Source: Candidatus Aminicenantes bacterium (lineage in GTDB: Bacteria; Acidobacteriota; Aminicenantia; Aminicenantales; Saccharicenantaceae). From it: a DNA stretch of 64,000 nt. The stretch's first letter is position 1. Every line of letters starts with the position of its first letter. Where the stretch lies: NCBI GenBank assembly GCA_963754085.1, contig CAVWFA010000003.1, forward strand, positions 391,854 through 455,853. Reading direction: 5' to 3'. The position numbers and the translations under genes were made by a program. The notes beneath the pieces are model-generated. The model made no database searches, was not told the origin of the DNA, and saw only the letters and a list, made by a program, of their open reading frames with translations. Below are positions 9,708 through 63,424 of the stretch, piece after piece.

Positions 9708-9736
9708 GGGGACATGTACCTGAGGTACGTGTCCCC
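9708..9736 (+). repeat. 29-nt hairpin element GGGGACATGTACC-TGA-GGTACGTGTCCCC (type 1)
   Basis: 13-bp arms with one T:G pair on the + strand, 9 nt after the GNAT stop. One of four near-identical copies in the window. Confidence 0.9.
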
Positions 9737-21405: not shown

Positions 21406-22438
21406 CTAGAACTTGGTGTTGAACACCGGCAGGACGCGGAGGTTCTTCGGATTGTCGCGGACGATGTTGACCAGCCCGATCTGAACGCCCTTCTCGATCC
21501 TCCAGGCGTAGTTGACGATGCCGATGCTGAGGCCCTTGAGCCCGCCCTGGCAGTAATTGAAGGCGCTCGCGGACAGGCCCGAAAGCCGGCCGTCCTTGAC
21601 CACCCGGACCATTCCCAGGGCCAGGAACGCGCCTTTGAGGTCCTCGCCGCCGACGCCGAGGCCGCAGACGGCCAGGCCGCGGATCTTGGGGGCGCCCGCG
21701 CCGATGCCGCAGACGACGAGCCCGTTGATGGACTCCCCGGCGCCGAGCCCGATCCCGCCGATGCCGACGCCGGTCAGGCGCTCCCCGCACCCGGCGCCCA
21801 ATCCGCCGATGACCAGGCCGGTCAGGTTCTCGCCGACTCCGGCCCCCAATCCGCCGATGGCGATGCCGGTCAGGTCGCCGCCCACGCCGGCGCCCAGGCC
21901 GCCGATGAGGATGCCCGTGGCGTTCTCCCCGGCCCCGCAGCCGAGCCCGCCGATGGCGATCCCGGCCAGGTCCTCGCCCGCGCCGGCCCCCAGGCCGCCG
22001 ACGGTGATGCCTTTGACGTTCTCGCCGGCCCCCGCGCCGAGCCCGCCGATGGTGATACCGACGAGGTCGTCCCCCGCGCCCGCGCCGAGGCCGCCGATAT
22101 TGATGCCCTTCATGCTGGTATCGGCGCCGGCCCCCAGGATGCCGATATTGAGGCCGTTCATCCGGCCGCCGCCGGGAGCGATGCCGAGCGAAAGACCGTT
22201 GACGATGGCGTCCTTGTTGTCCTTCTTCGGCCGCCAGAAGGTCACGTTGACCCCGTTGATCCTGTTGACCCGGCTGTCGCGGAAGTTGAACCGCAGGCCG
22301 GAGAAGGTCTTCGAATTGCCGAAGCTGAGGCCCCAGTCTTCGAGGGGATGTCCAGGCTCTGGGCGAACAGGCCGGCGGCCGAGGCCATCCCCAAGACGAG
22401 AACGAAGACGACGATCGCGAACGTTTCATCAGGCGCAT
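21406..22438 (-). CDS. Exported glycine-rich repeat protein (16-residue GIxIGGLGAGAGxxLx units); N-terminal region needs two frame corrections
   Basis: The main ORF 21406..22245 lacks a signal peptide. MRLMKR (frame of 22438), FAIVVFVLVLGMASAAGLFAQSLDIP and LEDWGLSFGNSKTF.. are found in three successive frames. The breaks lie at a T-run (about 22420) and a C4 run (22344-22347). Confidence 0.65.
21630..22155 (-). repeat. About 11 tandem 48-bp coding repeats (16-aa Gly-rich unit)
   Basis: GINIGGLGAGAGDDLV / GITIGGLGAGAGENVK / GIAIGGLGCGAGENAT ... read directly from the translation. Confidence 0.85.
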
Positions 22439-29868: not shown

Positions 29869-30645
29869 ATGACATCAAAGAGGATGACCGTCATCGCCAT
29901 CATGATCCTGACGGCGCTGGCCGTGCTGGCGGCGCTGCCCGCCCTGGCCCAGACTCCTTCGGCGAGCCCGCTCGTCCAACAGGGCGATGAGCTCTACACC
30001 CAGCGCGGCGACTTGGCCAAGGCCAAGGAAGCCCGGGCCAAGTACGAGGCCGCGCTGGCCGCCAAGGAGGACGACTACGGCGCCAGCTGGCGCCTGGCCC
30101 GGGTCCTCTACTGGATCGGCGACCACACGCCCACGAACGACGCCAAGAAACCGCTCTTCCAGAAGGGCATCGAGCACGCCAAGAAAGCCGTCGAGCTCGA
30201 TCCGAACAAGCCCGACGGGCACTTCTGGCTCGGCGTCAACTACGGCGTCTACGGCGAGGCCAAGGGCATCCTCAAGAGCCTGGCCCTGGTCAAGCCCATC
30301 AAGGCGGAGATGCGGCGCGTCCTCGAGCTCGAGCCCGCCTACGACCACGGCGGCGCCGACCGCGTCCTCGGCCGCGTTTATCACGAGCTGCCCGGGTTCG
30401 CCGGAGGCAGCGAGAAGCTCTCCCTCGAGTACCTGCTCAAGTCGGTCGGTTACGGCCCCCGCGTCGGCCTCAACCTCCTCTACCTGGCCGACACCTATCT
30501 CTCGCTCGACCGCGTCGAGGACGCCCGCAAGGCCCTCGAGACCATCCTGACCATGGAGCCTATGCCCGACCTCCTCCCCGAGACCGCCGAGGAACAGGCC
30601 CAGGCCCGCGAACGCCTCGAAAGGAAGCCTTTCAAGAAGAAATGA
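29869..30645 (+). CDS. Secreted TPR-like helical repeat protein
   Basis: Signal peptide followed by helical repeats (AKYEAALAA..DDY.A.WRLARV..). Confidence 0.65.
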   Translation: MTSKRMTVIAIMILTALAVLAALPALAQTPSASPLVQQGDELYTQRGDLAKAKEARAKYEAALAAKEDDYGASWRLARVLYWIGDHTPTNDAKKPLFQKGIEHAKKAVELDPNKPDGHFWLGVNYGVYGEAKGILKSLALVKPIKAEMRRVLELEPAYDHGGADRVLGRVYHELPGFAGGSEKLSLEYLLKSVGYGPRVGLNLLYLADTYLSLDRVEDARKALETILTMEPMPDLLPETAEEQAQARERLERKPFKKK

Positions 30646-31380
30646 CCGGTCCTGCTCCCGAAGGGGGACACGTACCCGGGGTACATGTCCCCGTTCCGAT
30701 ACTCTTCGAGACGGACGATTACCTCGCCGTCGACAAGCCCGAGGGGGTCGTGTCCGTCGCCGAGGCGGGCCGGGGCGGCCTGCCGGAGCTCCTGACAGAC
30801 CATTATGCCGGTAAGCTCTTCCCCGTCCACCGCCTCGACCGCGGCGCCAGCGGTGTCATCGTCTTCGCCAAGACCGCCGAGGCCCATCGCGCGCTCAACG
30901 GCCAGTTCGACCGCCGGGAGGTCCACAAGACTTATCTCGCACTCGTCGACGGCGTCCCGGCCACGAACCGGGGCCAGATCAACGCCCCCATCCGCGAGTT
31001 CGGCTCCGGCCGCATGGGCGTCGACCCCAAGCGCGGCAAGCCCTCCTCGACCGAATGGAAGGTGGCCGAGCGGCTCGACGACGCGACCCTCCTGCGCGTC
31101 AGCCCCTTGACCGGCCGGCGCCACCAGATCCGCGTCCATCTCTATCACATCGGCCATCCCATCCTCGGCGACCTCCGCTACGGCGACAAGGCGCGCCAGG
31201 AGCGGGTCCCGCGGCTCATGCTCCACGCCCTCTCGCTCGAGTTCTCTCTCCCTTCGGGGGAGCGCCTGACCGTCGAAGCCCCGCCGCCGCCGTCCTTCGA
31301 GGAGGTCCTGGCGGGGATGAGGAAGGCCCGGCCGAGAGCGGAAAGGCCGCGACCAAAACCGAACAAAGGAAATCCTGATG
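30642..31380 (+). CDS. RluA-family pseudouridine synthase (3' end uncertain; the ORF as given has no stop until 31994)
   Basis: YLAVDKPEGVV, HRLDRGASGVIVFAK and HQIRVHL motifs. Family-like sequence ends near 31330. A TGATGA lies at 31376-31381, but in another frame. Confidence 0.75.
30664..30692 (-). repeat. Type-1 hairpin element (GGGGACACGTACC-N3-GGTACATGTCCCC) inside the 5' end of the RluA ORF
   Basis: Same sequence as 9708-9736 but in the opposite orientation (T:G pair on the minus strand). Confidence 0.9.
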
Positions 31381-34108
31381 AACCGCATCGCCCGCCGCCC
31401 CTCCGTCCTCCAGTTTGCCGGGATCGTGTCGCTCGCGGCCCTGGCCTCTTATCTCCTCCTCACCCCCGCCGCGGCCCTGCCCGGCGCGGACGCTGCCGCG
31501 GGCGCGGCCAAGAAAGCCGCCCTCAAGCCCACCGCCGACGGCGCCAGGGCCTTCGCCCACGTCCGCTATCTGGCCTCGAACGATCTCAAGGGCCGCAAAT
31601 CCGGCACCCCGGAATACCGCCGCGCCGCCGAGTACGTGGCCGCCGAGATGCAGAAGGCCGGCCTCCAGCCGGGCGGCGACAACGGCACCTGGTTCCAGGA
31701 AGTCCCGTTCAAGAGCTGGTCGGACTTCGAGCAGCCCCTCCGCCTCGAGATCGTCTCGCCGCAGCGTCGCGTCTATTTCGCCGGCCGGGGCCGCGACTTC
31801 ACGCCGGTCGTCGGCACGGGCTCGGGCGCTGTTCGCGGCGGGCTCGTCTTCGCCGGCTACGGCGTCGCCGCCGGGAAGGACGGCTGGGACGACTACGCCG
31901 GGCTCGACGTCAAGGGCAAGATCGTCCTGCTCCTGCCGGACCTTCCCGCCTCCCTCGGAGACGACGCCAAGGCGGCTTGGACCTTCGAGAATAAGGTGAA
32001 GACCGCGGCCGCGAACGGCGCCGTCGGCCTCATCGAGATGGACCTCTCGACCCCCGGCGAGCCCCGCCGGCCCGGCGCCTCGCGCCAGCGCCCGGGCTTC
32101 CTCCGCGCCGGCCAGGCGCCGGAGGGCTTCGTCGTCCTGCGGGCCGGCCGCGACTTCCTCAACGACGCCTTCTATGCCGCCGGCAAGAGCTGGCGCGACC
32201 TCGTCAGCAAGACGCTCCGCCTGAAAAAGCCCTTCACCGCCGACGTCGGCGTCGAGGTCGAGATGGAAGCCCATTACGTCTCGGGCGAGCGGACGGCCCC
32301 GAACGTCGTCGGCATTTGGCCGGGCTCGGACCCCAAGCTCAAGGCCGAGGCCATCGTCATGGGCGGCCACCTCGACCACCTCGGCGTCGGCCTGGACGGC
32401 TGGATCTACCCGGGCGCGGACGACAACGCCACATCGGCCGCCACGGTCCTCGAGACGGCCCGGGCCCTGCGCGACGCCGGCTTCAAGCCGGCCCGGACCA
32501 TCGTCTTCGGCGCCTGGGCCGGCGAGGAGATGGGTCTCCAGGGCTCGCGCTGGTACACCGAACACCCGGTCATCCCCCTCGACAAGACCGTCCTTTATAT
32601 GAACATCGACATGGTCGGGACGGGCGACAGCGACCTCCTCGTGGGCGGCATGACCGAGTTCGCCGAGCTCTACGAGATCGTCAAGAAGGGCCTCGACCCG
32701 GTCGACGATCGCCAAGCTCAAGCCCCGGCCGAACTACCGCGGCTCCGACCACACCTCGTTCTGGGGCAAGAACGTCCCGGCCGTCAGCCTGCGCACGGGC
32801 GAGGTCCTGACCGAGAAGCTCGACGACGAGCACCCCGAGTACCACATGCCGGGCGACGGGCCGGGCACGATCGACCCCGAGCGCCTGCGCCAGGCCGGCC
32901 AGTATCACTGCGACGTCCTCCGGCACCTGGCGACCACCCGGGAGAACCTGCTCGACCCCCTCTTCCGGACGCTCTTCCTCCACCGCGACGCCATGGTCGT
33001 CGACATGCACTGCGACACGATCGGCCGGGCCCTGGCCGGCGAGGACCTGACGAAGGACCTGCCCAAGGGGCACATCGACATCCCCAAGCTCGAGCGCGGC
33101 GGCGTCGACCTCCAGGTCTTCGCCTGCTTCGCCCCGCCGCCGGCGAACGACCTCGAGAAGGCGAAGTCGGCCAACGGCGTTTTCGCCCAGATCGAGGCGG
33201 TCCGCGCGCTCGTCGACAGGAACCCCGACGACCTGGCCCTGGTCCTGTCCCCGCTCGACGCCAACGCCGCGAAGAACGAGAAGACCGGCGCGCTCATCGC
33301 CATCGAGGGCGGCTACGCCATCGAGAACGATCTCGTCCTCCTGCGGGAGTTCCACCGGGCCGGGGTGCGGCTGATGACGCTGACCCATTGGACGGCGACG
33401 GATTGGGCCGACGCCTCGGGCGATCCCCAGCCGGTCCACGGCGGGCTGACCGAGTTCGGCGAGAAGGTCGTGGCCGAGATGAACCGGCTGGGCATGATCA
33501 TCGACGTCTCCCACGCCGGCGACGAGACCTTTTGGGACGTGTTGAAGCTGTCCAAAGCGCCGGTCGTGGCCTCGCATTCGGCCTGCCGGGCGCTCTCTCC
33601 TCATCATCGGAATTTGAGCGACGAGATGCTCAAGGCCCTGGCGGAGAAGAACGGCCTCATCGGCATCACGGTGCTGCCCGGCTTCCTGAACAGCGCGCTC
33701 GAGGGGAAGCAGGACGAGCTCTACGACAAGGTCGCGGCCGAGCACGGCCTGCCCGCGGATTACCAGGCCATCGGCAAGGCCGAGCCGGCCAAGCGCGATG
33801 CCTTCTATGCCGACTTCGAGAAGCGCTGGGCGGCGCTCAAGAAGACGCTCCCCGTGGTGGACGTCAAGACCGTGGTCGACCACATCGACCACGTCGTCAA
33901 GGTCACCGGCGACTGCGACCACGTCGGCCTGGGCTCGGACTACGACGGGACGGGCGACACGCCGGCCGGGCTCGAGAATATCGGCCTCATTCCGAACATC
34001 ACCAAGGAGCTCGTCCGCCGCGGCTACAAGCCCGAGGACATCCGCAAGATCCTCGGCGCGAACTTCCTCCGCGTCTTCGCCGCCGTCGACCAGGCTAAAG
34101 AAAAGTAA
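31378..34108 (+). CDS. Exported M28 aminopeptidase (PA domain) fused in-frame to an M19 (renal-type) dipeptidase; one frame break near 32700
   Basis: M28 motifs: GGHLDH, DDNATS, GEEMGLQGS, and after the shift NYRGSDHTSFW..EYHMPGD. There is no stop before the M19 motifs (VVDMHCDT, RLMTLTHW, IIDVSHAG, SHSACRAL..HHRNL, GLGSDYDG). Confidence 0.7.
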
Positions 34109-34247
34109 TGGGGTCGGACCTCAGGAATAGACTTATTTATCAATTACTTAAGCCTGTTTTTTTAACTCTAAAAGGCTTAAAACCGGTGTTTTTGGCCTCA
34201 AAAACGAAGAGTTCGACTCTCTTTGTTTGAGCCGGAAGGGTTTTTTT
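34107..34247 (+). repeat. AT-rich structured intergenic element, copy X (starts AATGGGGTCGGACCTCAG)
   Basis: About 100 nt at roughly 70% identity to the reverse complement of 63324-63424. Contains GTTTTTG/CAAAAAC and AAGAG-TTCGACT-CTCTT hairpins and a T7 run. Confidence 0.7.
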
Positions 34248-40316: not shown

Positions 40317-41165
40317 TCAGAGCCAGAGCGAGGCCGCTTCGGGGACGGCGGCGCGGTCGACGAGCGAGATCGCGCCCTTGACGCAGACCGGCCGGCAGAT
40401 GCCGCAGCCGTAGCATTTCTTCGGATCGATCCGGGCCTTGGCCTTGCGCTTGTGGGGCAGGTACGCGTCGAAGGGACAGATCTTGACGCACTCGCCGCAG
40501 CCGACGCAGGCGGCTTCGTCCACCCGGGCCATGTATTCGCCCCGGAACATGACCGGCGCCCTGTGGGTCAGCGTCGCCTTCATGGCCATGCAGCCGGGCA
40601 GAGCGCAGTTGCAGATGCCGCCCAGGAAGGGCGTCACGAACGACCAGACGGTGTGGCAGAGCCCTTCCTCTTCGCTTTCACGCATCAAAGCCAGGGCTTC
40701 CTCTTTAGGCAGGAACTCGAGCCCGCCGGTCTGCGGTCCGATGAGATAGCCGGAGTCGACGCTCTTGAGGATGTTCAGCATCTCGCCGCCCTGCGGCGCC
40801 AGGCTGATGCCGTAGCAGTAGCGGTGCTCGGGGCCGAAGGCCACGTGGCGGCAGATGCAGGCCAGGCGGACGACCGAGGTCGTGAAGCCGAGGATGCGCT
40901 CGATGTCTTCGATCGGGACGACCTGGCCGAAATGATTGACCTTCTGCCTCTTGGTGATCGCACGCCGGATGCCGCGGGTGAAGAACGAGGGGATCCGGTC
41001 GAGCTTGCCGAGAGCCTTTTCCCCCTTCGCCAGGTGCTCCGGCGATTCGAAGAAACGCTCGATGAATTTCCGCCTGCGGAGGTCGCTGAGCAGGTCCTCG
41101 GCGTAGTTATTGGCGTTGAGGTACCACTTTTTCCCCTCGCCGTGCTGATGGCAGAATTCGCACAT
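40317..41165 (-). CDS. Uncharacterised Fe-S protein: N-terminal CxxC, Cys-rich core, C-terminal 2x[4Fe-4S] ferredoxin motifs
   Basis: MCEFCHQHGEGKKWYL start; CVGCGECVKICP and CYGCGICRPVC motifs. Low-GC3 codons upstream of 41165 argue against the 41276 start. Confidence 0.7.
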   Translation of the reverse strand: MCEFCHQHGEGKKWYLNANNYAEDLLSDLRRRKFIERFFESPEHLAKGEKALGKLDRIPSFFTRGIRRAITKRQKVNHFGQVVPIEDIERILGFTTSVVRLACICRHVAFGPEHRYCYGISLAPQGGEMLNILKSVDSGYLIGPQTGGLEFLPKEEALALMRESEEEGLCHTVWSFVTPFLGGICNCALPGCMAMKATLTHRAPVMFRGEYMARVDEAACVGCGECVKICPFDAYLPHKRKAKARIDPKKCYGCGICRPVCVKGAISLVDRAAVPEAASLWL

Positions 41166-41461
41166 CTTGAGGCCATCGTGCCACAGGCTTCCCGGGGTGT
41201 CAATGCTTTGAACATGGGGGCCAGGGGCCAAAGACGGAAAAAAACCTTTCCCAAGACGAATTTTCATCAAAAACACCGGAAAAGCAGGGTTTTTCCCCTA
41301 ACACGGCAAGGCTCGCACAAGCCGTTTTGAAGGCTCTGCCTGAAGGCCTCGGCAGAAGGCCGATCGGGCGGCCATTTTCGCAACCGGATCCCCGCCAAAG
41401 TCAGGAAAATCCTAGGAAAATCCCGATCGTTCTCGGAAAAGGACCGGGTTTTTAAAAGTGC

Positions 41462-41490
41462 TTGACAAGCAGTATGATATCCAGTATAGT
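41462..41490 (+). promoter_or_regulatory. Consensus-like sigma70 promoter of padR copy 1 (TTGACA-N17-TATAGT)
   Basis: Read directly from the sequence. The leader carries the direct repeat ACACATCAT at 41496-41504 and 41513-41521; the second copy overlaps the ATG. Confidence 0.6.
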
Positions 41491-41519
41491 TTAATACACA
41501 TCATAGTGAGATACACATC

Positions 41520-41867
41520 ATGACAAACATCGAACCCGATATCGGCAGCCTCGAAACGGAGATGAACCGGGGGTTCCTCCACATCCTCGTCCTGGCCCTG
41601 CTCGAAAAGGACATGTACGGCTATGCCATGGTCAAGCACATCGAGACGCTGGGCTACAAGGTCGAGGAGAACACTCTCTATCCCCTTCTCCGCCGGCTCG
41701 AGAAGAACGGCTGGATCGCGTCGAAGTGGAACCTGGCCGAGGACAGGCCCCGCAAGTTCTACGCGATCACCGCGGCGGGCCGCGCCCTCCGGGCCAACCT
41801 TCTCGACGTCTGGAAGACGCAGAACCGCGTCCTCGAAAAGACCATCAAGGAGACCTCCCATGTCTGA
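41520..41867 (+). CDS. PadR-family transcriptional regulator (copy 1)
   Basis: L.ILVLALL....YGY.....I......V.E.TLYP.L.RLE..G.I...W......RK.Y.IT..G. Confidence 0.9.
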   Translation: MTNIEPDIGSLETEMNRGFLHILVLALLEKDMYGYAMVKHIETLGYKVEENTLYPLLRRLEKNGWIASKWNLAEDRPRKFYAITAAGRALRANLLDVWKTQNRVLEKTIKETSHV

Positions 41868-42529
41868 CAAGCTCGAAGCTTATCTCGAAGAGATCAGCCA
41901 CTTCCTCTCCGGCCGCGCCGAGCGCGAGGAAATCCTGTCGGAGATCCGCAGCCACATCCTGGAAAAAGCCGCCGCGGAGACCGGCGCGTCGGGCGACGCC
42001 GCCGTCGAAACGGCCATCGCCGCCTACGGCGCCGGCCGCGCCGCGTCGCCGAGCGCTACGTCGAAGACCGGCCCATCATCGCCCCGGCCTACAAGCGCTA
42101 CCTCTTCCGTTACACGACGTTCCTCTTCGCCATCCACACCGCGCTGACCCTCATGGCCGTGGTCTTCAAGAAGGACTTCGTCCTCTTCCCGTTCCTGTAC
42201 ATGCCCAAGCTCGGCGTTATCGAGGCCCTGATGTACCTGCCGACGGCCTTCCTGGCCGACCTCGGCATCGTCACGGTCGTGCTCTACTTTATCACCCAGA
42301 GCGGCAAGGACATCAAGCTGCCCTGGCCGAAGTTCGCCGTCGACCTCGACGAGGTCAAGCCCCCGACAGAAGAGCTTCTGGCTGAGCCGCGTCGCCACGG
42401 CCGTCGGGGCGGTCATCATGCTGGCCATCACCGATTTCGCGCTCTATGTCTTCGCCCGGCACCAGACCATCTTCTTCGCCAACGTCGACTGGCACAACCT
42501 GCGTCCGCTGTTCATGCCGGCCGGCAGAA
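41860..42529 (+). pseudogene. PadR-associated HAAS/DUF1700-type membrane protein, copy 1: two frame breaks, 3'-truncated at the duplication junction
   Basis: MSDKLEAYLEEISHFLSGRAEREEILSEIRSHI. Breaks near 42040-42046 and 42366-42372 relative to copy 2. Homology ends at 42522. Confidence 0.7.
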
Positions 42530-43102
42530 TGCCGGCAGAGCGCAGTTGCAGATGCCGCCCAGGAAGGGCGTCACGAACGACCAGACGGTGTGGCAGAGCC
42601 CTTCCTCTTCGCTTTCACGCATCAAAGCCAGGGCTTCCTCTTTAGGCAGGAACTCGAGCCCGCCGGTCTGCGGTCCGATGAGATAGCCGGAGTCGACGCT
42701 CTTGAGGATGTTCAGCATCTCGCCGCCCTGCGGCGCCAGGCTGATGCCGTAGCAGTAGCGGTGCTCGGGTCCGAAGGCCACGTGGCGGCAGATGCAGGCC
42801 AGGCGGACGACCGAGGTCGTGAAGCCGAGGATGCGCTCGATGTCTTCGATCGGGACGACCTGGCCGAAATGATTGACCTTCTGCCGCTTGGTGATCGCAC
42901 GCCGGATGCCGCGGGTGAAGAACGAGGGGATCCGGTCGAGCTTGCCGAGAGCCTTTTCACCCTTCGCCAGGTGCTCCGGCGATTCGAAGAAGCGCTCGAT
43001 GAATTTCCGCCTGCGGAGGTCGCTGAGCAGGTCCTCGGCGTAGTTATTGGCGTTGAGGTACCACTTTTTCCCCTCGCCGTGCTGATGGCAGAATTCGCAC
43101 AT
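42512..43102 (-). pseudogene. 3'-truncated paralogue of the Fe-S protein (lacks the ferredoxin-type C-terminus)
   Basis: Matches residues 1 to about 190 of 40317..41165 up to ..FLGGICNCALP, then runs into junction sequence. Confidence 0.75.
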
Positions 43103-43399
43103 CTTGAGGCCATCGTGCCACAGGCTTCCCGGGGTGTCAATCCTTTGAACATGGGGGCCAGGGGCCAAAGACAGGAAAAAACCGTTCCCAGGACGAATTT
43201 TCATCAAAAACACTGGAAAAGCACGGTTTTTCCCCTATCACGGTCAAGGCTCGCACGGGCCGTTTTGAAGGCCCTGCCTGAAGGCCTCGGCAGAAGGCCG
43301 ATCGGGCGACCATTTTCGCAACCGGATCCCCATCAAAGTCGGGAAAATCCTAGGAAAATCCCGACCGGACTTGGAAAAAGACAGTGTTTTAAAAAGTGC

Positions 43400-43428
43400 T
43401 TGACAAGCCGTATGATATCCAGTATAGT
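43400..43428 (+). promoter_or_regulatory. sigma70 promoter of padR copy 2 (TTGACA-N17-TATAGT)
   Basis: Same architecture as 41462-41490. Confidence 0.6.
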
Positions 43429-43457
43429 TTATTACACATTATAGTGAGACACACATC

Positions 43458-43805
43458 ATGACAAACAACGAACCCGACATCGGCAGCCTCGAAACGGAGA
43501 TGAACCGGGGGTTCCTCCACATCCTCGTCCTGGCCCTGCTCGAAAAGGACATGTACGGCTATTCCATGGTCAAGCACATCGAGACGCTGGGCTACAAGGT
43601 CGAGGAGAACACCCTCTATCCCCTTCTCCGCCGGCTCGAGAAGAACGGCTGGATCGCGTCGAAGTGGAACCTGACCGAGGACAGGCCCCGCAAGTTCTAC
43701 GCGATCACCGCGGCGGGCCGCACCCTCCGGGCCAACCTTCTCGACGTCTGGAAGACCCAGAACCGCGTCCTCGAAAAGATCAACAAGGAGACCTCCCATG
43801 TCTGA
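43458..43805 (+). CDS. PadR-family transcriptional regulator (copy 2)
   Basis: 115 aa, 6 substitutions relative to copy 1. Confidence 0.9.
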   Translation: MTNNEPDIGSLETEMNRGFLHILVLALLEKDMYGYSMVKHIETLGYKVEENTLYPLLRRLEKNGWIASKWNLTEDRPRKFYAITAAGRTLRANLLDVWKTQNRVLEKINKETSHV

Positions 43806-44785
43806 CAAGCTCGAAGCCTATCTCGAAGAGATCAGCCACTTCCTCTCCGGCCGCGCCGAGCGCGAGGAGATCCTGTCCGAGATCCGCAGCCACATCCTGG
43901 AAAAGGCCGCCGAGGGGACCGGCGCGTCGGGCGACGCCGCCGTCGATAACGGCCATCGCCGCCTTCGGCCCGGCCCGCAAGGTCGCCGAACGCTACGTCG
44001 ACGACCGGCCCATCATCGCCCCGGCCTACAAGCGCTACCTCTTCCGCTACACGTCGTTCCTCTTCGCCATCCACGCCGCGCTGACCGTCATGGCCGTCGT
44101 CTTCAAGAAGGACTTCGTCATCTTCCCGTTCCTGTTCATGCCCAGGCTCGGCGTCATCGAGGCCCTGATGTACCTGCCGATGGCCTTCCTGGCCGACCTC
44201 GGCATCGTCGCGGTCGTGCTCTACTTCATCACCCAGAGCGGCAAGGACGTCAAGCTGCCCTGGCCGAAGTTCGCCGTCGACCTCGACGAGGTCAAGCCCC
44301 CGAAGAAAAGCTTCTGGCTGAGCCGCGTCGCCACGGCCGTCGGGGCGGTCATCATGCTGGCCATCACCGACTTCGCGCTCTATGTCTTCGCCCGGCACCA
44401 GACCATCTTCTTCGCCAACGTCGACTGGCACAACCTGCGTCCGCTGTTCATGCCGGCCCCCGGACGGCGCATCTCCCTCATCGTCATCGCCATGTTCGCC
44501 GCCTCGACCATGGCCCTCCTCGTCAAGCTCTTCACCCGCTCCCGCTGGGTCGACGTCGCTTCGAACGTCGTCACGCTCGGCCTCGTCGGCCTCCTTCTCC
44601 GCCAGCCCTTCGACAACCTCTTCGTCCCCGAGATCGCCGGCCGCTTTTCGCCCAGGATCGTCACCTGGGGGAAATATTCGGTCCTCTTCACGCTCCTCTT
44701 CATCGCCCTGATGACCACCATCGAGCTGGTCAAGAGCATCGTCATCATCAGCCGGCGGAAGCTCAATTCGGTGACACACAACTGA
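43798..44785 (+). CDS. PadR-associated HAAS/DUF1700-type membrane protein, copy 2 (full length; one frame break near 43946)
   Basis: The N-terminal helical domain is in the frame of 43798. The TM body (..VAERYVDDRPIIAPAYKRYLF... to NSVTHN) is in the frame of ORF 43664..44785. An extra T in GATAAC relative to GAAAC of copy 1. Confidence 0.7.
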
Positions 44786-48422: not shown

Positions 48423-48481
48423 GGGGACACAATACCAATTCCCCTATTTTCAATAAATGGGTGAATTGGTATTGTGTCCCC
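48423..48481. repeat. 59-nt palindromic element (19-bp arms GGGGACACAATACCAATTC / GAATTGGTATTGTGTCCCC), copy 1
   Basis: Part of a 70-nt block (48421-48490) that is 69/70 identical to 49889-49958. Confidence 0.95.
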
Positions 48482-49841: not shown

Positions 49842-49870
49842 GGGGACACGTACGAAGCGTACATGTCCCC
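49842..49870 (-). repeat. Type-1 hairpin element (GGGGACACGTAC-GAAGC-GTACATGTCCCC)
   Basis: Same family as 9708, 30664 and 52178. Lies 20 nt from the next element. Confidence 0.9.
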
Positions 49871-49890
49871 TGCTCACAGAGACGAAAAAG

Positions 49891-49949
49891 GGGGACACAA
49901 TACCAATTCCCCTATTTGCAATAAATGGGTGAATTGGTATTGTGTCCCC
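49891..49949. repeat. 59-nt palindromic element, copy 2
   Basis: See 48423-48481. Confidence 0.95.
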
Positions 49950-49952
49950 GAT

Positions 49953-51809
49953 TTAGAGGCCGTGGTACTTTTCGAGGATCTCGGCGTACTTGCGCTCCTC
50001 GAGCCGCAGGATCTCGGCGAAGCGGGGATCGTTCCTCAGCTTGTCGTAGAAATAGTCCCGGGTATTGTTGAGGTAGGAGAAGAAGTAGAGGTAGTCGTAA
50101 ATGTCCTCGAAACCCCGGTCGATGCCCGATTCGATCGTGGCCACCGCCTCGTCGAACATGCCCAGGGCCGCGTAGACGCGCGACCGGAAATAGGTGCCCC
50201 GCGACGGCCGGGACGCGTCGAGCGACGCCTCGATCGTGGCCAGGGCCGCCTTCCTGTCCCCGTTGGCCGCCGCGGCCAGGGCCCTCACGAGCCGGACGTA
50301 TGTGTCGCCCGGCGCCAGCGTCTCGGCCAAGGCCAGCTCGGCCGCCGCCGTGTCGTACCTCTTCATCAGGATGAGCGCCCGGGCCATGTGGCAGCGCGTC
50401 TTGACGTCGGTCGGGTCGAGCCCGATCATCTTGTCGTAGTCCGCCAGGGCCGACTCGAAGAGGCCCATCTGCTCGTAGGTATAGCCCCGCATCATGTACA
50501 TGTCCACCGTCGTGCCGCCGGCCTGGATGACCCGGGTGAAGTATTCGGCGGCCCGCTCCAGCATCCCGATGCTCCGGAGGAACCCGCCGATGTCGGTCAG
50601 GACATGGAGGCTCGACGGGTCGAGGGCCAGCGCCTTCTTGAGACAGGCGTAGGCCTGGTCGTTTTCTCGCCTGAAATAGTGGAACCAGGCCATCCCGACG
50701 TTGGTCTCGGCCCGGTCGGGGGCCATCTCGTAGGCGCGCCGGTAGTTCTCCTCCATCAGGCGCAGCGTGGCGGGGCTGTCCTCCTCGTAGACGAACCGGT
50801 ACTGGTAGGCGTCGCCCAGCCCGAGGTAGGCCAGGGGGCAGCCGGGGTCGGCCTCGCGGGCCTGGGTGAACAGGGCGATGATCTTCTCGAGCTCGGCCGG
50901 TTCGGTCGTGATCACGTACTTGCGGGCGATGGCCCGGGCCGTCTCATAGAGGCGGGTGGCCTGGACCGAGCAGAGGGCCAGGGCCTCGGGCCCGGACGAA
51001 GTCGGTACGCCGAAGGCGCGGCGGACGCCGTCGGCGATGCGGCTCTCGACGACGGGGATGTCGGCTTCCGTGCCCGGGACGTGGTCCGTCTTGAGCGGCG
51101 CGGCGCCGCGGGCCTCGCGGACCTCGTAACCGACGCGGATCTTCGAGCCGGAGCGGGCGAGGAAGCCGGCGACGAGCCAGCCCGCGCCCAGCCGGTCCGA
51201 GACGGCGGCGAGCTCGTCGGGTGTGAGCGGCGCGCCCGGCTCGAGGCCGAGCTTGCGCACGGTCTCGATCACGGCGGCGAAGGTGTAGACCTTGAGGTGC
51301 TCGGAGCTCCGCTGGAGATCCCGGATGAGGTGGTCGGGGACGGACTCGCGAAGGTAGTTGAGGCCGTCGTCGCCCGTCCCGTTGACGAAGGGCAGGACGG
51401 CGACCGCGGGGCGATCCCCGTTCGGGACGTAGTGGGGGTGGCCGTTGCTGATGACGCGCCAGCCGAGGACGCCGACGGCCATAAACGCCGTGAACCCGGC
51501 CAGAACGTACCAGCGACGGAACGAGGCGAAGGAGGTCGGGACGCGGAGGCCGAAGATCACGACGGCGTCGGGTCCGGACGCGGGGCCGGAGCCGGAGTGA
51601 GCCGGTTTCTCGGGATCGTGCTCGTGGAGCTTGGCGTCGAGCCACCAGTCGATCTCGTCTTTGTAGGCCATGACGCGGGCCTTGGGCGAGCCGTCGAGGC
51701 GGTGGACGGGGAGGCCGAGGTTCTCCTCCCAGCGGCGGCAGGTGCGGACGTCGCGGCCGAGGTAGGAGGCGATCTCCTTCCAGGACTGTAGAACTTCGCG
51801 AGCACCCAT
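49953..51809 (-). CDS. N-terminal HTH (SWKEIA.YLG...RT..RWE...GLPVH) - TM - periplasmic domain - TPR repeat protein
   Basis: 618 aa. Excisionase/MerR-like HTH, one TM segment, and multiple TPR-like repeats in the C-terminal half. Confidence 0.75.
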   Translation of the reverse strand: MGAREVLQSWKEIASYLGRDVRTCRRWEENLGLPVHRLDGSPKARVMAYKDEIDWWLDAKLHEHDPEKPAHSGSGPASGPDAVVIFGLRVPTSFASFRRWYVLAGFTAFMAVGVLGWRVISNGHPHYVPNGDRPAVAVLPFVNGTGDDGLNYLRESVPDHLIRDLQRSSEHLKVYTFAAVIETVRKLGLEPGAPLTPDELAAVSDRLGAGWLVAGFLARSGSKIRVGYEVREARGAAPLKTDHVPGTEADIPVVESRIADGVRRAFGVPTSSGPEALALCSVQATRLYETARAIARKYVITTEPAELEKIIALFTQAREADPGCPLAYLGLGDAYQYRFVYEEDSPATLRLMEENYRRAYEMAPDRAETNVGMAWFHYFRRENDQAYACLKKALALDPSSLHVLTDIGGFLRSIGMLERAAEYFTRVIQAGGTTVDMYMMRGYTYEQMGLFESALADYDKMIGLDPTDVKTRCHMARALILMKRYDTAAAELALAETLAPGDTYVRLVRALAAAANGDRKAALATIEASLDASRPSRGTYFRSRVYAALGMFDEAVATIESGIDRGFEDIYDYLYFFSYLNNTRDYFYDKLRNDPRFAEILRLEERKYAEILEKYHGL

Positions 51810-52002: not shown

Positions 52003-52823
52003 ATGTCCCGCCGCCACCCGAAAGGTTATTGGTACCTGCCCGGGCTCCTCTACGATCTCGCCTTCAAGCGCATGTTCCGGGGCTTGCGGCGACGGGTCTC
52101 GCGGACGATCGAACGGGAGGGGCTCTATCCTTGGCTGGAGGTCTGCTGCGGCACGGGCGACCAGCTGCGGCACGCGCGGGGACATGTACCGAAGGTACGT
52201 GTCCCCCAAATTGGATTGGCCGAGGAGGGGTTTGCTTGGGGGACGGCGAACATGGAGCCCGGAACGGGTGTCCCCGATGAGCAAGCACAGGGGGTCGAGG
52301 CACGAGACGGCCGGGCCGTAGTTGGCCTCGACCTGAGCTTCGGCTTCGTCCGATACGCCGGGCCCGCGCGCCCCAGGTCCCGTTCATTTGCGGCGATGCG
52401 GCCCGACTCCCGTTCAAGACCGGCTCCATGCGGGCCGTCAGCGTGTCGTTCGGCCTCCACGACAAGAGCCTGGAGCTCCGGAGCGCGATCCTGGCCGAAG
52501 CGAAGCGAGTGTTGAAGCCGGGCGGGCGGCTCATCGCCGTCGATTTCGAGAACCCCTGGGACGCGGCCTCGCGCGCCGGGGCCCTGTTCACCCGGGCCAT
52601 CGAGCGGCTCGCCGGGCGGGAGCACTACGGCAACGGCCGGGATTTCCTGCGCCGCGGCGGCCTGCGGGGCTTTCTCCGGGAGAACGGTTTCGCCGAGGTT
52701 GCGCGCCGCGACGTCCCGGTCGGCTCGGTCAGTGTGGTCGTCGCGAAACTCGACTCGGATCGCCCTTGCGATTTGCCGCCCGCGGAGATTAAGATGGCGT
52801 CAAACCATTTGTTCCCGAGATAG
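52003..52823 (+). CDS. Class I SAM-dependent methyltransferase interrupted by an in-frame block of about 98 nt of palindromic-element sequence, plus one frame break near 52360
   Basis: LEVCCGTGDQL (motif I), then about 52 aa instead of the usual about 20 before VVGLDLS. FICGDAARLPF..SMRAVSVSFGLH, VLKPGGRLIAVDF. Confidence 0.65.
52178..52206 (+). repeat. Type-1 hairpin element (GGGGACATGTACC-GAA-GGTACGTGTCCCC) inside the methyltransferase ORF
   Basis: Arms identical to those of 9708-9736. Confidence 0.9.
52238..52275. repeat. Degenerate GGGGAC...GGAACGGGTGTCCCC element fragment
   Basis: The right end resembles the right arm of 47858-47879 (GGGAAACGGGTATCATGTCCCC) with an internal deletion. 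Confidence 0.5.
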
Positions 52824-54713: not shown

Positions 54714-57040
54714 TCAGGGCGTCACGGTCAGGGTCGCCCTGACGGTGACGCCCCTTCTGGCTGAAATTGTGACAGCTCGTGTCGACGTCACGGCAGACGT
54801 TGTGATCGAGAATGTCGCTGTCGTCGCCCCGGCCGGAACGGTTACTGACGCCGGCACCTGAGCAGTCGAGGTACGGCTGCTCGTCAGTGTGACGACCATC
54901 CCTCCGGCAGGCGCCGGTCCGGTCAATGAGACCGTACCTGTGGATGGGTTACCTCCGCGTACACTGCTTGGATTGAGGCTCAGCGAGGATGCCACGGGCG
55001 CCCTCACCGCAAGGCTCGCCGTCCGGCTGACGCCGTTGTAGAGGGCCGTGATCGTCGACGACCGATTCGAGGTCACGGGGCTCGTCGTCACCGTGAACGT
55101 CGCCGTGGTCGCCCCGGCCGCCACCGTCACCGAGGCCGGCACCTGGGCCGCTGTATTGCTCGAGGTCAGGCTGACCACTGCCCCGCCTGTCGGAGCCGGT
55201 CCACCCAGTATCACGGTTCCCGTCGAGGACTCCCCGCCCACAACCGTCGCCGGGCTCACGCCCACGGACGTCAGCGTCGCCGCCGCCGGCGCCGTCACCG
55301 TCAGGGTCGCCGTCCGGCTGACACTGGAATAAACGGCCGTGATCGTCACGGCCGTATCGGCAGCCACCGGGCTCGTCGCCGCCGTGAACGTCGCCGTCGT
55401 CGCCCCGGCCAGAACGGTCACGCTCGCCGGCACCTGGGCCGCCGCCGTGTTCGAGCTCGTCGTAGCGTGACCACGGCACCGCCCGGTCGGCGCCGGCCCG
55501 CTCAGCGTTACCGTTCCGGTCGAGGAGGTGCCGCCGGGCACAGTCGCCGGGCTCACGCTCACAGACGTCAGCGTCGCCGCCACCGGCGCCGTCACCGTCA
55601 GGGTCGCCGTCCGGCTGACACTGGAATAAGCAGCCGTGATCGTCACCGTCGTATCGGAGGCCACCGGGCTCGTCGCCGCCGTGAACGTCGCCGTCGTCGC
55701 CCCGGCCAGAACGGTCACGCTCGCCGGCACCTGGGCCGCCGCCGTGTTCGAGCTCGTCAGCGTGACCACGGCACCGCCCGTCGGCGCCGGGCCGCTCAGC
55801 GTCACCGTTCCGGTCGAGGACGTGCCGCCGGCAGAGCCGCCGGGCTGACGCTCACGGACGTCAGTGTCGCCGCCGCCGACGCCGTCACCGTCAAGGTCGC
55901 CGTCAGGGTGGCGCTGCCGTAAACAGCCGTGATCGTTACCGTCGTATTGGAGGCCACCGGGCTCGTCGTCACCGGGAACGTCGCCGTCGTCGCCCCGGCC
56001 GCAACGGTCACGCTCGCCGGCACCTGGGCCGCCGTGTTCAAGCTCGCCAGCGTGATTACCACTCGGCCCGCGGGCGCTGGACTGACCAAAGCCACCGTTC
56101 CTTGGAGGACGCACCGCCCGGCACCGAAGCCGGGGTGATGTTCACCCAGCTGAGCGTCGCTGCCGCCACGGTCACCGCCAGGGTCGCCGTCCGGCTGACA
56201 CTGGAATAAACAGCCGTGATCGTCACCGTCGTATTGGAGGCCACCGCGCTCGTCGTCGCCGTGAACGTCGCCGTTGTCGCCCCGGCCACAACGGTCACGC
56301 TCGCCGGCACCTGGGCCGCCGCCGTGTTCGAGCTCGTCAGCGTGACCACCGCCCCGCCCGCCGGCGCAGGTCCGCTCAGCGTCACCGTCCCGGTCGAGGG
56401 ACTCCCGCCCACGACCGAAGTCGGGATCAGGCTGATGGAGCTCAGGACCGGCGCGGGACGCCGTCATGGTCACCGTCAGGGCGGCCGTACGGGTCACCCC
56501 GATCGTAGAGGGCCGTGATCGTCACCGCCGTATTGGAGGCCACCGGGCTCGTCGTCGCCGTGAATGTCGCCGTTGTCGCCCCGGCCAGAACGGTCACGCT
56601 CGCCGGCACCTGGGCCGCCGCCGTGTTCGAGCTCGTTAGCGTCACCACCGCCCCGCCCGCCGGCGCAGGTCCGCTCAGCGTCACCGTCCCTGTCGACGAA
56701 ACGCCGCCCTGCACTGAAGCCGGGCTCACGCTCACGGACGTCAGCGCCGCCTCCGGCGCCATCACCGTCAGCGTCGCCGTCCGATTGATACCGTCATAGA
56801 GGGCCGTGATCGTCACCGCCGTGCTGAGCGCAACCGGGTTCGTCGTGGCCGGGAACGTCGCCGTCGTCGATCCAGCCGCCACCGTCACCGACGTCGGCAC
56901 CTGGGCCGCCGCCGTGTTCGAGCTCGCCTGGACGTAACCACCGTGCCCGCCGGCGGGCGCAGGTCCGCGAGCGTGATCGTTCCGGTGAGACACCCGCCCA
57001 CCGTCACCGGGTCTATGCCGAGCCGATGAGCGCAACGCCT
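54714..57040 (-). CDS. Thr/Ala/Val-rich Ig-like tandem-repeat surface protein (about 8 x 98 aa), many frame breaks; possibly continuous with the CE4 gene upstream
   Basis: Repeat unit: LTSVSVSPATVPGGTSSTGTVTLSGPAPTGGAVVTLTSSNTAAAQVPASVTVLAGATTATFTAATSPVASDTTVTITAAYSSVSRTATLTVTAP. Confidence 0.7.
54740..57010 (-). repeat. About 8 tandem copies of a roughly 294-bp coding repeat
   Basis: The marker GTGATCGT recurs at 55048, 55339, 55636, 55929, 56216, 56515 and 56808. Spacings are 291/297/293/287/299/293, which are not all multiples of 3. Confidence 0.9.
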
Positions 57041-63323: not shown

Positions 63324-63424
63324 CTGTTTTCAGGGCCAAAAACATCGATTTAAGGCCTTTATCGTGCCAATTTATCGGTCTAACTTATTGATTTCTATGT
63401 ATATTTCTGAGGTCCGACCCCATT
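63324..63424 (-). repeat. AT-rich structured intergenic element, copy Y (minus strand; starts AATGGGGTCGGACCTCAG)
   Basis: An 18-mer identical to 34107-34124, then about 70% identity over about 100 nt, including the TGTTTTTGGCC..AAAAC hairpin. Confidence 0.7.

Follow-up and report, generated by a model that had tools for sequence, protein, structure and literature searches.

A palindrome sits within the sole possible 5' coding region of one gene in a 64,000-nt stretch of DNA (here, the window) from a Candidatus Aminicenantes bacterium, and the question it raises is where, and how, that gene begins. The gene belongs to the RluA family of pseudouridine synthases, and the palindrome, a 29-nt hairpin, lies between its sole possible start codon and its catalytic core. 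An earlier inspection of the letters alone (the sequence-only reading) had left two explanations: the hairpin is translated as an N-terminal extension, or the gene uses a non-canonical start. Comparison with orthologous genes and loci points to the former, and the hairpin is very probably a tolerated, translated insertion of a dispersed repeat, not a regulatory device. The locus is composed as follows.

29869–30645, plus strand: upstream gene, TPR/TAtT-like; an open reading frame (ORF) with Pfam matches to TPR_19, TPR_11 and TAtT, and the same neighbour in orthologous loci.
30642–30644, plus strand: ATG start codon of the RluA-family gene, the sole canonical in-frame start, at a conserved junction.
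30651–30698, plus strand: leader codons derived from the insertion, roughly codons 4–19 (PAPEGGHVPGVHVPVP), from alignment of filled and empty sites; boundaries approximate.
30664–30692, minus strand: hairpin element, RluA copy, in its fully paired G.U orientation, antisense to the RluA gene (pattern search, folding energy).
30699–31378, plus strand: RluA catalytic core, PseudoU_synth_2 with the HRLDRGASG motif (Pfam, solved structures, C-terminal frame as compared with orthologues); the true stop is TGA 31376–31378.

The host protein carries both marks of its family, a PseudoU_synth_2 domain (PF00849, E = 3.5e-31) and the catalytic HRLD motif, and matches RluC and RluA structures with E values of 1e-33 to 1e-31. 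Its alignment to these crystal structures begins at residue 19–20, so that the insert sits in a tail outside the catalytic fold. As had been claimed, there is a single in-frame start, overlapping the preceding stop: over all 708 nt of open frame before the ILFETDDY core, ATG 30642 is the only ATG, GTG or TTG, the next in-frame GTG being found only after DKPEG. The ATG shares an ATGA with the TGA (30643–30645) of the TPR gene, which suggests a possible translational coupling of the two genes. Translation also bears out that the element reads through as GGHVPGVHVP; the stem, read directly from the sequence, is stop-free in all six frames, so that read-through is inherent in the element and carries no information on coding.

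What speaks for coding is the comparison of leaders, for which 120 orthologues at 73–92% identity and 45 orthologous metagenome loci with DNA were available. The closest homologues of the RluA protein, and of a methyltransferase described below, are labelled Aminicenantes or Aminicenantales by their sources. In each locus that could be anchored, the start codon, ATG or rarely GTG, stands in the conserved context AAGAARAAATGACCGG and shares its frame with the core, and the ATGA stop/start junction is conserved and in frame in about 40 loci. The distance from start to core falls into ten classes (12, 18, 21, 33, 54, 57, 63, 72, 96 and 123 nt): leader lengths vary only by multiples of three, which an untranslated spacer would not need. 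Gene callers of independent assemblies likewise have the 120 orthologues begin with M-T-G. The 10–17 aa N-terminal gap, proposed beforehand as a check in orthologues, is found: the shortest leaders, MTGPIR (e.g. in locus L128), MTGSAVR and MIR, contain no element and stand directly before VLFE. The net gain of the window gene over the empty site of L128 is 39 nt (about 13 aa). The hairpin begins at +23, counted from the A of the ATG, in every leader that bears the element; in leaders with two copies (L134, L124/L137 and proteins like P0084), the second follows downstream at an offset of exactly 45 nt. It is the in-frame ATGA junction, conserved across ten classes of leader length, that decides between the two explanations: as far as these alignments can tell, translation begins at the conserved ATGA and takes in the hairpin as an N-terminal extension. 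The N-terminal tryptic peptide expected from ATG 30642 is (M)TGPAPEGGHVPGVHVPVPILFETDDYLAVDKPEGVVSVAEAGR.

The hairpin, GGGGACACGTACC-CGG-GGTACATGTCCCC, consists of a 13-bp stem and a 3-nt loop. On the plus strand, that of the mRNA, the stem contains one C/A mismatch, which becomes a G.U pair on the minus strand; the predicted folding energy is -24.8 kcal/mol on the plus strand and -28.0 kcal/mol on the minus strand. A pattern search allowing up to 3 mismatches finds copies at 9708–9736, 30664–30692 and 52178–52206 of the window and none in shuffled sequence. A half-site search adds a fourth, at 49842–49870, with a compensatory GTACG/CGTAC change, for a total of 4 copies in 64 kb versus 0 expected. 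Besides the RluA copy, they are the following.

9708–9736, plus strand: intergenic copy in forward orientation, 10 nt past the stop of a plus-strand gene and upstream of the PEPCK gene; -32.6 kcal/mol.
49842–49870, minus strand: intergenic variant copy, forward on the minus strand, 3' of the minus-strand gene 49953–51809; GTTTTG comes next.
52178–52206, plus strand: copy within a UbiE-like methyltransferase gene, in sense orientation, reading GHVPKVRVP; it lies between S-adenosylmethionine (SAM) motif I (CCGTGDQLR) and the VVGLDLS strand.

Every one of the 8 half-site matches found in the window falls within these 4 hairpins; with no solitary half-site there, the idea of a DNA uptake sequence (DUS/USS) is ruled out. 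A second palindromic repeat of about 60 nt (GGGGACACAATACCAATTCCCCTATTTnCAATAAATGGGTGAATTGGTATTGTGTCCCC) is present at 48424–48480 and 49890–49950. Its ends, GGGGACAC...GTGTCCCC, match the ends of the 29-nt hairpin; both copies lie directly 3' of minus-strand genes, and one adjoins the hairpin at 49842–49870.

The hairpin is not confined to the window. A scan of one genome per species (596 Gb) locates it in more than 116 loci of public genomes; among the matches listed, about half come from Candidatus Aminicenantes/Acidobacteriota or from high-G+C bins labelled "uncultured", and about half from Caulobacter/Caulobacteraceae. The family shows constant stems and variable loops. Its forward consensus, given in the G.U orientation and with flanks profiled over 69 copies, is composed of an A-rich 5' flank, GGGGACATGTACC-NNN-GGTACGTGTCCCC and nTTCTT. 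An intrinsic (Rho-independent) terminator has a G+C-rich stem with a run of U directly behind it; the run in the nTTCTT that follows the forward stem is short, and a consensus scan called the RluA copy on neither strand. Of 74 intact copies found in Aminicenantes-type loci, only about 6 were verified inside real genes; the others are intergenic or lie at the edge of an ORF (gene calls being crude). The family is thus a palindrome of 20–40 nt with many dispersed, mostly intergenic copies, that is, repetitive extragenic palindromic (REP) DNA in the broad sense. No match was found in scanned viral contigs, and no relevant family in Rfam, either for the whole window at gathering scores or for the locus at E <= 10. 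A protein database search with concatenated GHVPxVHVP variants returned 55 candidates, none of which scored.

In Caulobacteraceae (L005–L112; e.g. L006:6876–6957, L014:77–154, L065, L091), chromosome-level assemblies included, the 26-nt stem is identical, with the same T.G/C.A asymmetry. These copies usually form inverted doublets, spaced by about 50 nt, in which the loop has 3 or 6 nt and the stem is preceded by C and followed by TAA. It is unlikely that two phyla have one REP stem in common by chance. Single copies were also observed in low-G+C bins of Denitrovibrio, FCPU426 and Omnitrophota (L003:2443–2470, L025:2516–2542, L062:2918–2947), those in L003 and L025 at ordinary 3'-end or convergent-gene positions. 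Since a perfect palindrome amounts, by our own estimate, to about 12 independent bases, and 596 Gb were scanned, these lone copies may be chance matches among terminator hairpins.

Candidates for in-frame copies were selected by G+C content at third codon positions (GC3); as the strict GC3 test missed real cases, looser versions were checked by eye and with Pfam. The Pfam-checked in-frame cases in other genes are listed here.

L035, GH38 alpha-mannosidase gene: two copies, RGHVPKVHVP and GTRTKGTCP, in inter-domain regions.
L053, 3037–6076, DnaE gene of an Aminicenantes bin: GDTYQGYMSP and GTCTAGTCP, plus a third copy that has decayed, all within the PHP region.
L010, ROK kinase gene: the C-terminus continues through RGHVPEVHVP.

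Apparent intragenic matches in L007, L036, L043, L059 and L087 were discarded, being in spurious antisense ORFs or upstream of the true start. Intact RluA, methyltransferase, GH38, DnaE and ROK genes therefore all hold the palindrome in frame, which is the behavior known from Rickettsia palindromic elements (RPEs). Across these hosts the element is read in all three frames, with frames b (GTCTxGTCP) and a (GDTYxxYMSP) used in the GH38 and DnaE genes. The sequence-only reading had remarked that the RluA and methyltransferase copies are translated in the same phase: the phase of GHVPKVRVP does match, and intact methyltransferase orthologues keep it in frame, yet the use of all three frames elsewhere makes this no rule. 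Of the 6 verified in-gene cases, 5, among them RluA, have the element antisense to the gene, and only the methyltransferase has it in sense; the bias, based on few cases, may reflect selection against terminator-like polarity on the mRNA.

The methyltransferase gene offers a second site, at which insertion can be followed in detail.

52003–52823, plus strand: UbiE/COQ5-like methyltransferase gene, which a 1-nt frameshift near 52365 splits in the window.
52239–52275, plus strand: second hairpin-like remnant (GGGGAC...GTGTCCCC), inside the same insert and at the same place in the intact orthologue P0121/L164.

The insert, of about 43 aa, holds both the hairpin copy and the second remnant, and is found in frame in P0121/L164 (86% identity). 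Alignments to methyltransferases in the PDB resume only past it. The linker that joins the GTG of motif I to the GLD strand is as short as 10 aa (DQLRGRAGNL) and as long as 63 aa in the 120 orthologues compared; GHVPxVRVP is perfect in 25 of them and degenerate in 18, several featuring two or three copies. A different palindromic peptide, RGSNLPFAxKGRFDPL, occupies the same linker in 4 of the 120 (P0201, P0216, P0220, P0240), so that at least two repeat families use this site. The linker is a recurrent hot spot of insertion and duplication. At the DNA level (L162, L163, L164), 4 of 5 hairpins are perfect, the first L163 copy having one stem change, and the tails in L162 and L163 are GTTCTT or GCTCTT.

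For the RluA leaders, the fate of the hairpin is mostly decay. The 16 distinct leader copies show 0–9 mismatches to the consensus stem, and most are decayed. Typical changes are GTA to GTC or GTG, in both arms: synonymous, but stem-breaking. Paired stem cells amount to 75% in these copies versus 76% in column shuffles, and the 2 double-sided changes observed among them are not above shuffles, giving no sign of compensatory variation; structural selection on the RluA copy is hence unsupported by pair counts. The mean majority-base frequency in the leader columns is 0.81, 0.74 and 0.70 at codon positions 1, 2 and 3. The leader of L126 (MSGRVPK) resembles an in-frame internal deletion of an L121-type leader. 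As a whole, the pattern is the one that would be expected of a translated insert without structural constraint.

Four things can be read directly in these alignments: the start codon, the preserved frame, whether orthologues have the element or lack it, and the decay of the hairpin in most lineages. The following account fits them best. The hairpin is one copy of a REP-type palindromic family of Aminicenantes-type bacteria, characterized by a 13-bp stem whose T.G/C.A asymmetry is fixed, by a 3-nt loop that varies and, in many copies, by a 3' nTTCTT. Most copies lie between genes, where they may act mainly at the level of RNA or single-stranded DNA; some have landed in tolerant parts of coding sequences, and are kept if the frame is preserved. 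With a stem that is stop-free in all frames, in-frame persistence is easy, and an antisense orientation within most genes may keep the terminator-like polarity off the mRNA. The RluA gene most likely received a unit of about 39–45 nt after its fourth codon, downstream of the ATGA overlap, which is translated as a Gly/His/Val/Pro-rich extension of the unstructured N-terminal tail, before the first strand of the catalytic fold; for the enzyme, the insertion is likely to be close to neutral.

Several observations weigh against an insertion that simply decays. The window and L165 copies (P0009, 83% protein identity) both match the stem at 26 of 26 bases, yet about 45% of the flanking positions differ between them. 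P0009 and P0044 are 94% identical, with 48 identical nt upstream, yet their leaders are a 57-nt one with the element and a 33-nt one that looks unrelated, MTGGTPGPAVR; no single deletion converts the former into the latter. In the methyltransferase gene, the L162 and L163 proteins are only 61–64% identical to that of the window, yet their hairpins are mostly perfect; perfect hairpins there use A/T-ending codons despite the very high GC3 of the genomes. Perfect copies call for recent re-insertion, gene conversion or nucleotide-level selection in some lineages. Where a gene precedes an intergenic copy by no more than 150 nt, it runs with the forward orientation in 19 cases and against it in 11, a weak bias resting on crude gene calls. 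As to movement, no GTAG/CGTC tag is present at the hairpin ends in the flank profiles of the 69 copies, and a tblastn search of the window and of L001–L161 for the REP-associated tyrosine transposase (RAYT), a weak test made with one E. coli RayT sequence as query, gave no match below E = 2.9. Elements flanking genes in L010 and L020 enclose the ROK gene and another ORF, which reads as PadR-like, not a transposase.

In a rough neighbor-joining tree, element-bearing and element-free leaders are scattered over the clades. Together with the perfect stems of the window and L165, and with the P0009/P0044 leaders, this indicates that some turnover is needed in RluA leaders, by fresh insertion, conversion from other copies or allele exchange. 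The 33-nt leader might be an excision scar, left by loss of the inner 21 nt of the hairpin; the L165/L166 alignment shows no simple deletion. It is conceivable, if rather doubtful, that the hairpin is an active mobile or self-homogenizing element, shared by two phyla, whose machinery has escaped recognition and which, at tolerant sites of conserved enzymes, repeatedly inserts anew or renews the copy already there. If so, free-living bacteria would be adding GHVPxV(H/R)VP modules to their proteins in RPE-like fashion, on a large scale and to this day, and the copies would be more than old neutral scars.

That the hairpin is kept by selection as a cis-acting structure, its translation being incidental, is unlikely. 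Such a structure might slow early elongation, tune the ATGA coupling or stop antisense transcripts, its paired orientation and CTTC tail being on the minus strand. The predicted stability, on mRNA and antisense strand alike, would allow this, and the position is fixed at +23 in every element-bearing orthologue; yet pairing in the 16 leader copies is no better than in shuffles, with no compensatory variation. Perfect stems in the window and L165 persist amid diverged flanks, and perfect stems use A/T-ending codons otherwise avoided by the genome; most orthologues, against this, have broken inner stems or no element. A promoter-like site, a consensus match only, lies upstream of the antisense hairpin (minus strand, 30829–30802), while the same element is found at unrelated sites inside other genes and between genes.

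A start downstream of the hairpin, at a non-canonical codon (ATA 30699 or GTT/GTC), with the element as an untranslated spacer, is very improbable. In Pseudomonas, Citrobacter and Stenotrophomonas, it is true, most REPs that annotation places in 5' coding regions are regarded as probably extragenic, the starts having been mis-annotated (Di Nocera et al. 2013, PMC3733652), and in other loci, e.g. L043 and L010:713, the element stands just upstream of the likely true start. In the RluA gene, however, no canonical start separates the element from the conserved core, and element-free orthologues use the same ATGA start, only 6–7 codons before the core. Furthermore, every leader-length variant keeps the junction in frame, and substitutions in the leader are most frequent at third codon positions, as reported above.

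An artefact of assembly or base calling at the junction is scarcely credible: at least three 1-nt frameshifts do affect conserved genes of the window, each beside CCCGG/CCGGG, and the RluA hairpin loop contains CCCGGGG, but the identical leader peptide GGHVPGVHVP is present in the intact orthologue P0001 from an independent JGI assembly (12 member sequences), and related element leaders in more than 15 independent metagenome contigs.

RPEs, to which the insertion had been likened, are A+T-rich and come from an obligate intracellular alphaproteobacterium; RPE-1 is about 100–150 bp long. The Aminicenantes element, unlike them, is a 29-nt G+C-rich hairpin, in a unit of about 39–45 nt, and belongs to free-living, uncultured Acidobacteriota. 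The hosts here are Aminicenantes-type and Caulobacteraceae bins. The likeness claimed is one of behavior: a dispersed palindrome found in frame in intact genes, in tails or loops outside the fold, with copies that decay and with pseudouridine synthase and dnaE genes among the hosts (PMC3733652). As a description of the mechanism the comparison stands; in-frame palindromes are not, on the other hand, confined to Rickettsia, since REPs inside coding regions occur in many bacteria, and RPE-4 and RPE-6 themselves belong to the REP families treated in the same work (PMC3733652).

With the REPs tagged by GTAG/CGTC the element has more in common. They are 20–40 nt long, with a stem of up to 13 bp, a short loop and frequent G.T pairs, and are mostly intergenic, with a minority in genes, single or grouped; pseudouridine synthase and dnaE/dnaE2 genes are recurrent intragenic hosts, and the same question arises, whether N-terminal copies are translated (PMC3733652). 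The Aminicenantes element differs in having no such tetranucleotide at either end and no tyrosine transposase found with it. It also differs in that the coding status of an N-terminal copy is demonstrable, the start being fixed by the conserved stop/start overlap. A literature search combining Aminicenantes with "repetitive extragenic palindromic" found nothing.

REPINs, spread by RAYTs, are high-copy hairpin families with strand asymmetry in the stem, perfect copies being found in some lineages and decayed ones in others. These traits are shared by the present family, as are, in Caulobacteraceae, the inverted doublets about 50 nt apart; unlike REPINs, Aminicenantes-type copies are mostly single, and the RayT query found no RAYT in the window or the loci searched. 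Mycobacterial interspersed repetitive units (MIRUs) are small repeats at junctions of coupled operon genes, where they form a small ORF of their own between two genes, with overlapping stops and starts. The RluA repeat similarly lies near the junction of genes that may be translationally coupled and is read in the direction of the flanking genes; unlike a MIRU, it is located inside the downstream gene, past the shared ATGA.

Other features of the window were recorded. The 1-nt frameshifts beside CCCGG/CCGGG are located at the 3' end of the RluA gene (31325–31335), in an M28 peptidase gene (about 32700) and in the methyltransferase gene (about 52365), orthologues of which are intact. Rather than pseudogenes, they suggest an error that recurs at this motif in base calling or assembly, perhaps where long reads cross a methylated site. 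A 44-nt A+T-rich sequence (AATGGGGTCGGACCTCAGGAATAGACTTATTTATCAATTACTTA) is found at 34107–34150 and, inverted, 29 kb away at 63381–63424, with 82% complementarity; the first copy lies directly past the end of the long ORF (31378–34098) in which the M28 peptidase gene is located. A tandem duplication of about 1.9 kb (40597–42522 and 42534–44458) shows 93–100% identity. Two internal tandem arrays, one of 8 units of 48 nt (16 aa) at 21645–22172, the other of about 7 units of 287–299 nt (roughly 97 aa) at 54760–56928, presumably encode repeated protein domains.

For annotation, the consequence is that GHVPxV(H/R)VP leaders and loops of these genomes are to be regarded as repeat-derived, and not taken for conserved motifs or for signs of a mis-called start. 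Whether REPs in 5' coding regions are translated is a question that the literature leaves open; for the RluA copy, a pinned start allows coding to be shown. In-frame palindromic insertions, known from Rickettsia and other bacteria, are thereby extended to the widespread, uncultured Aminicenantes, whose RluA and methyltransferase sites, with their empty, intact, decayed, duplicated and deleted states, may be used to study how inserts are tolerated by proteins and how REPs are maintained.

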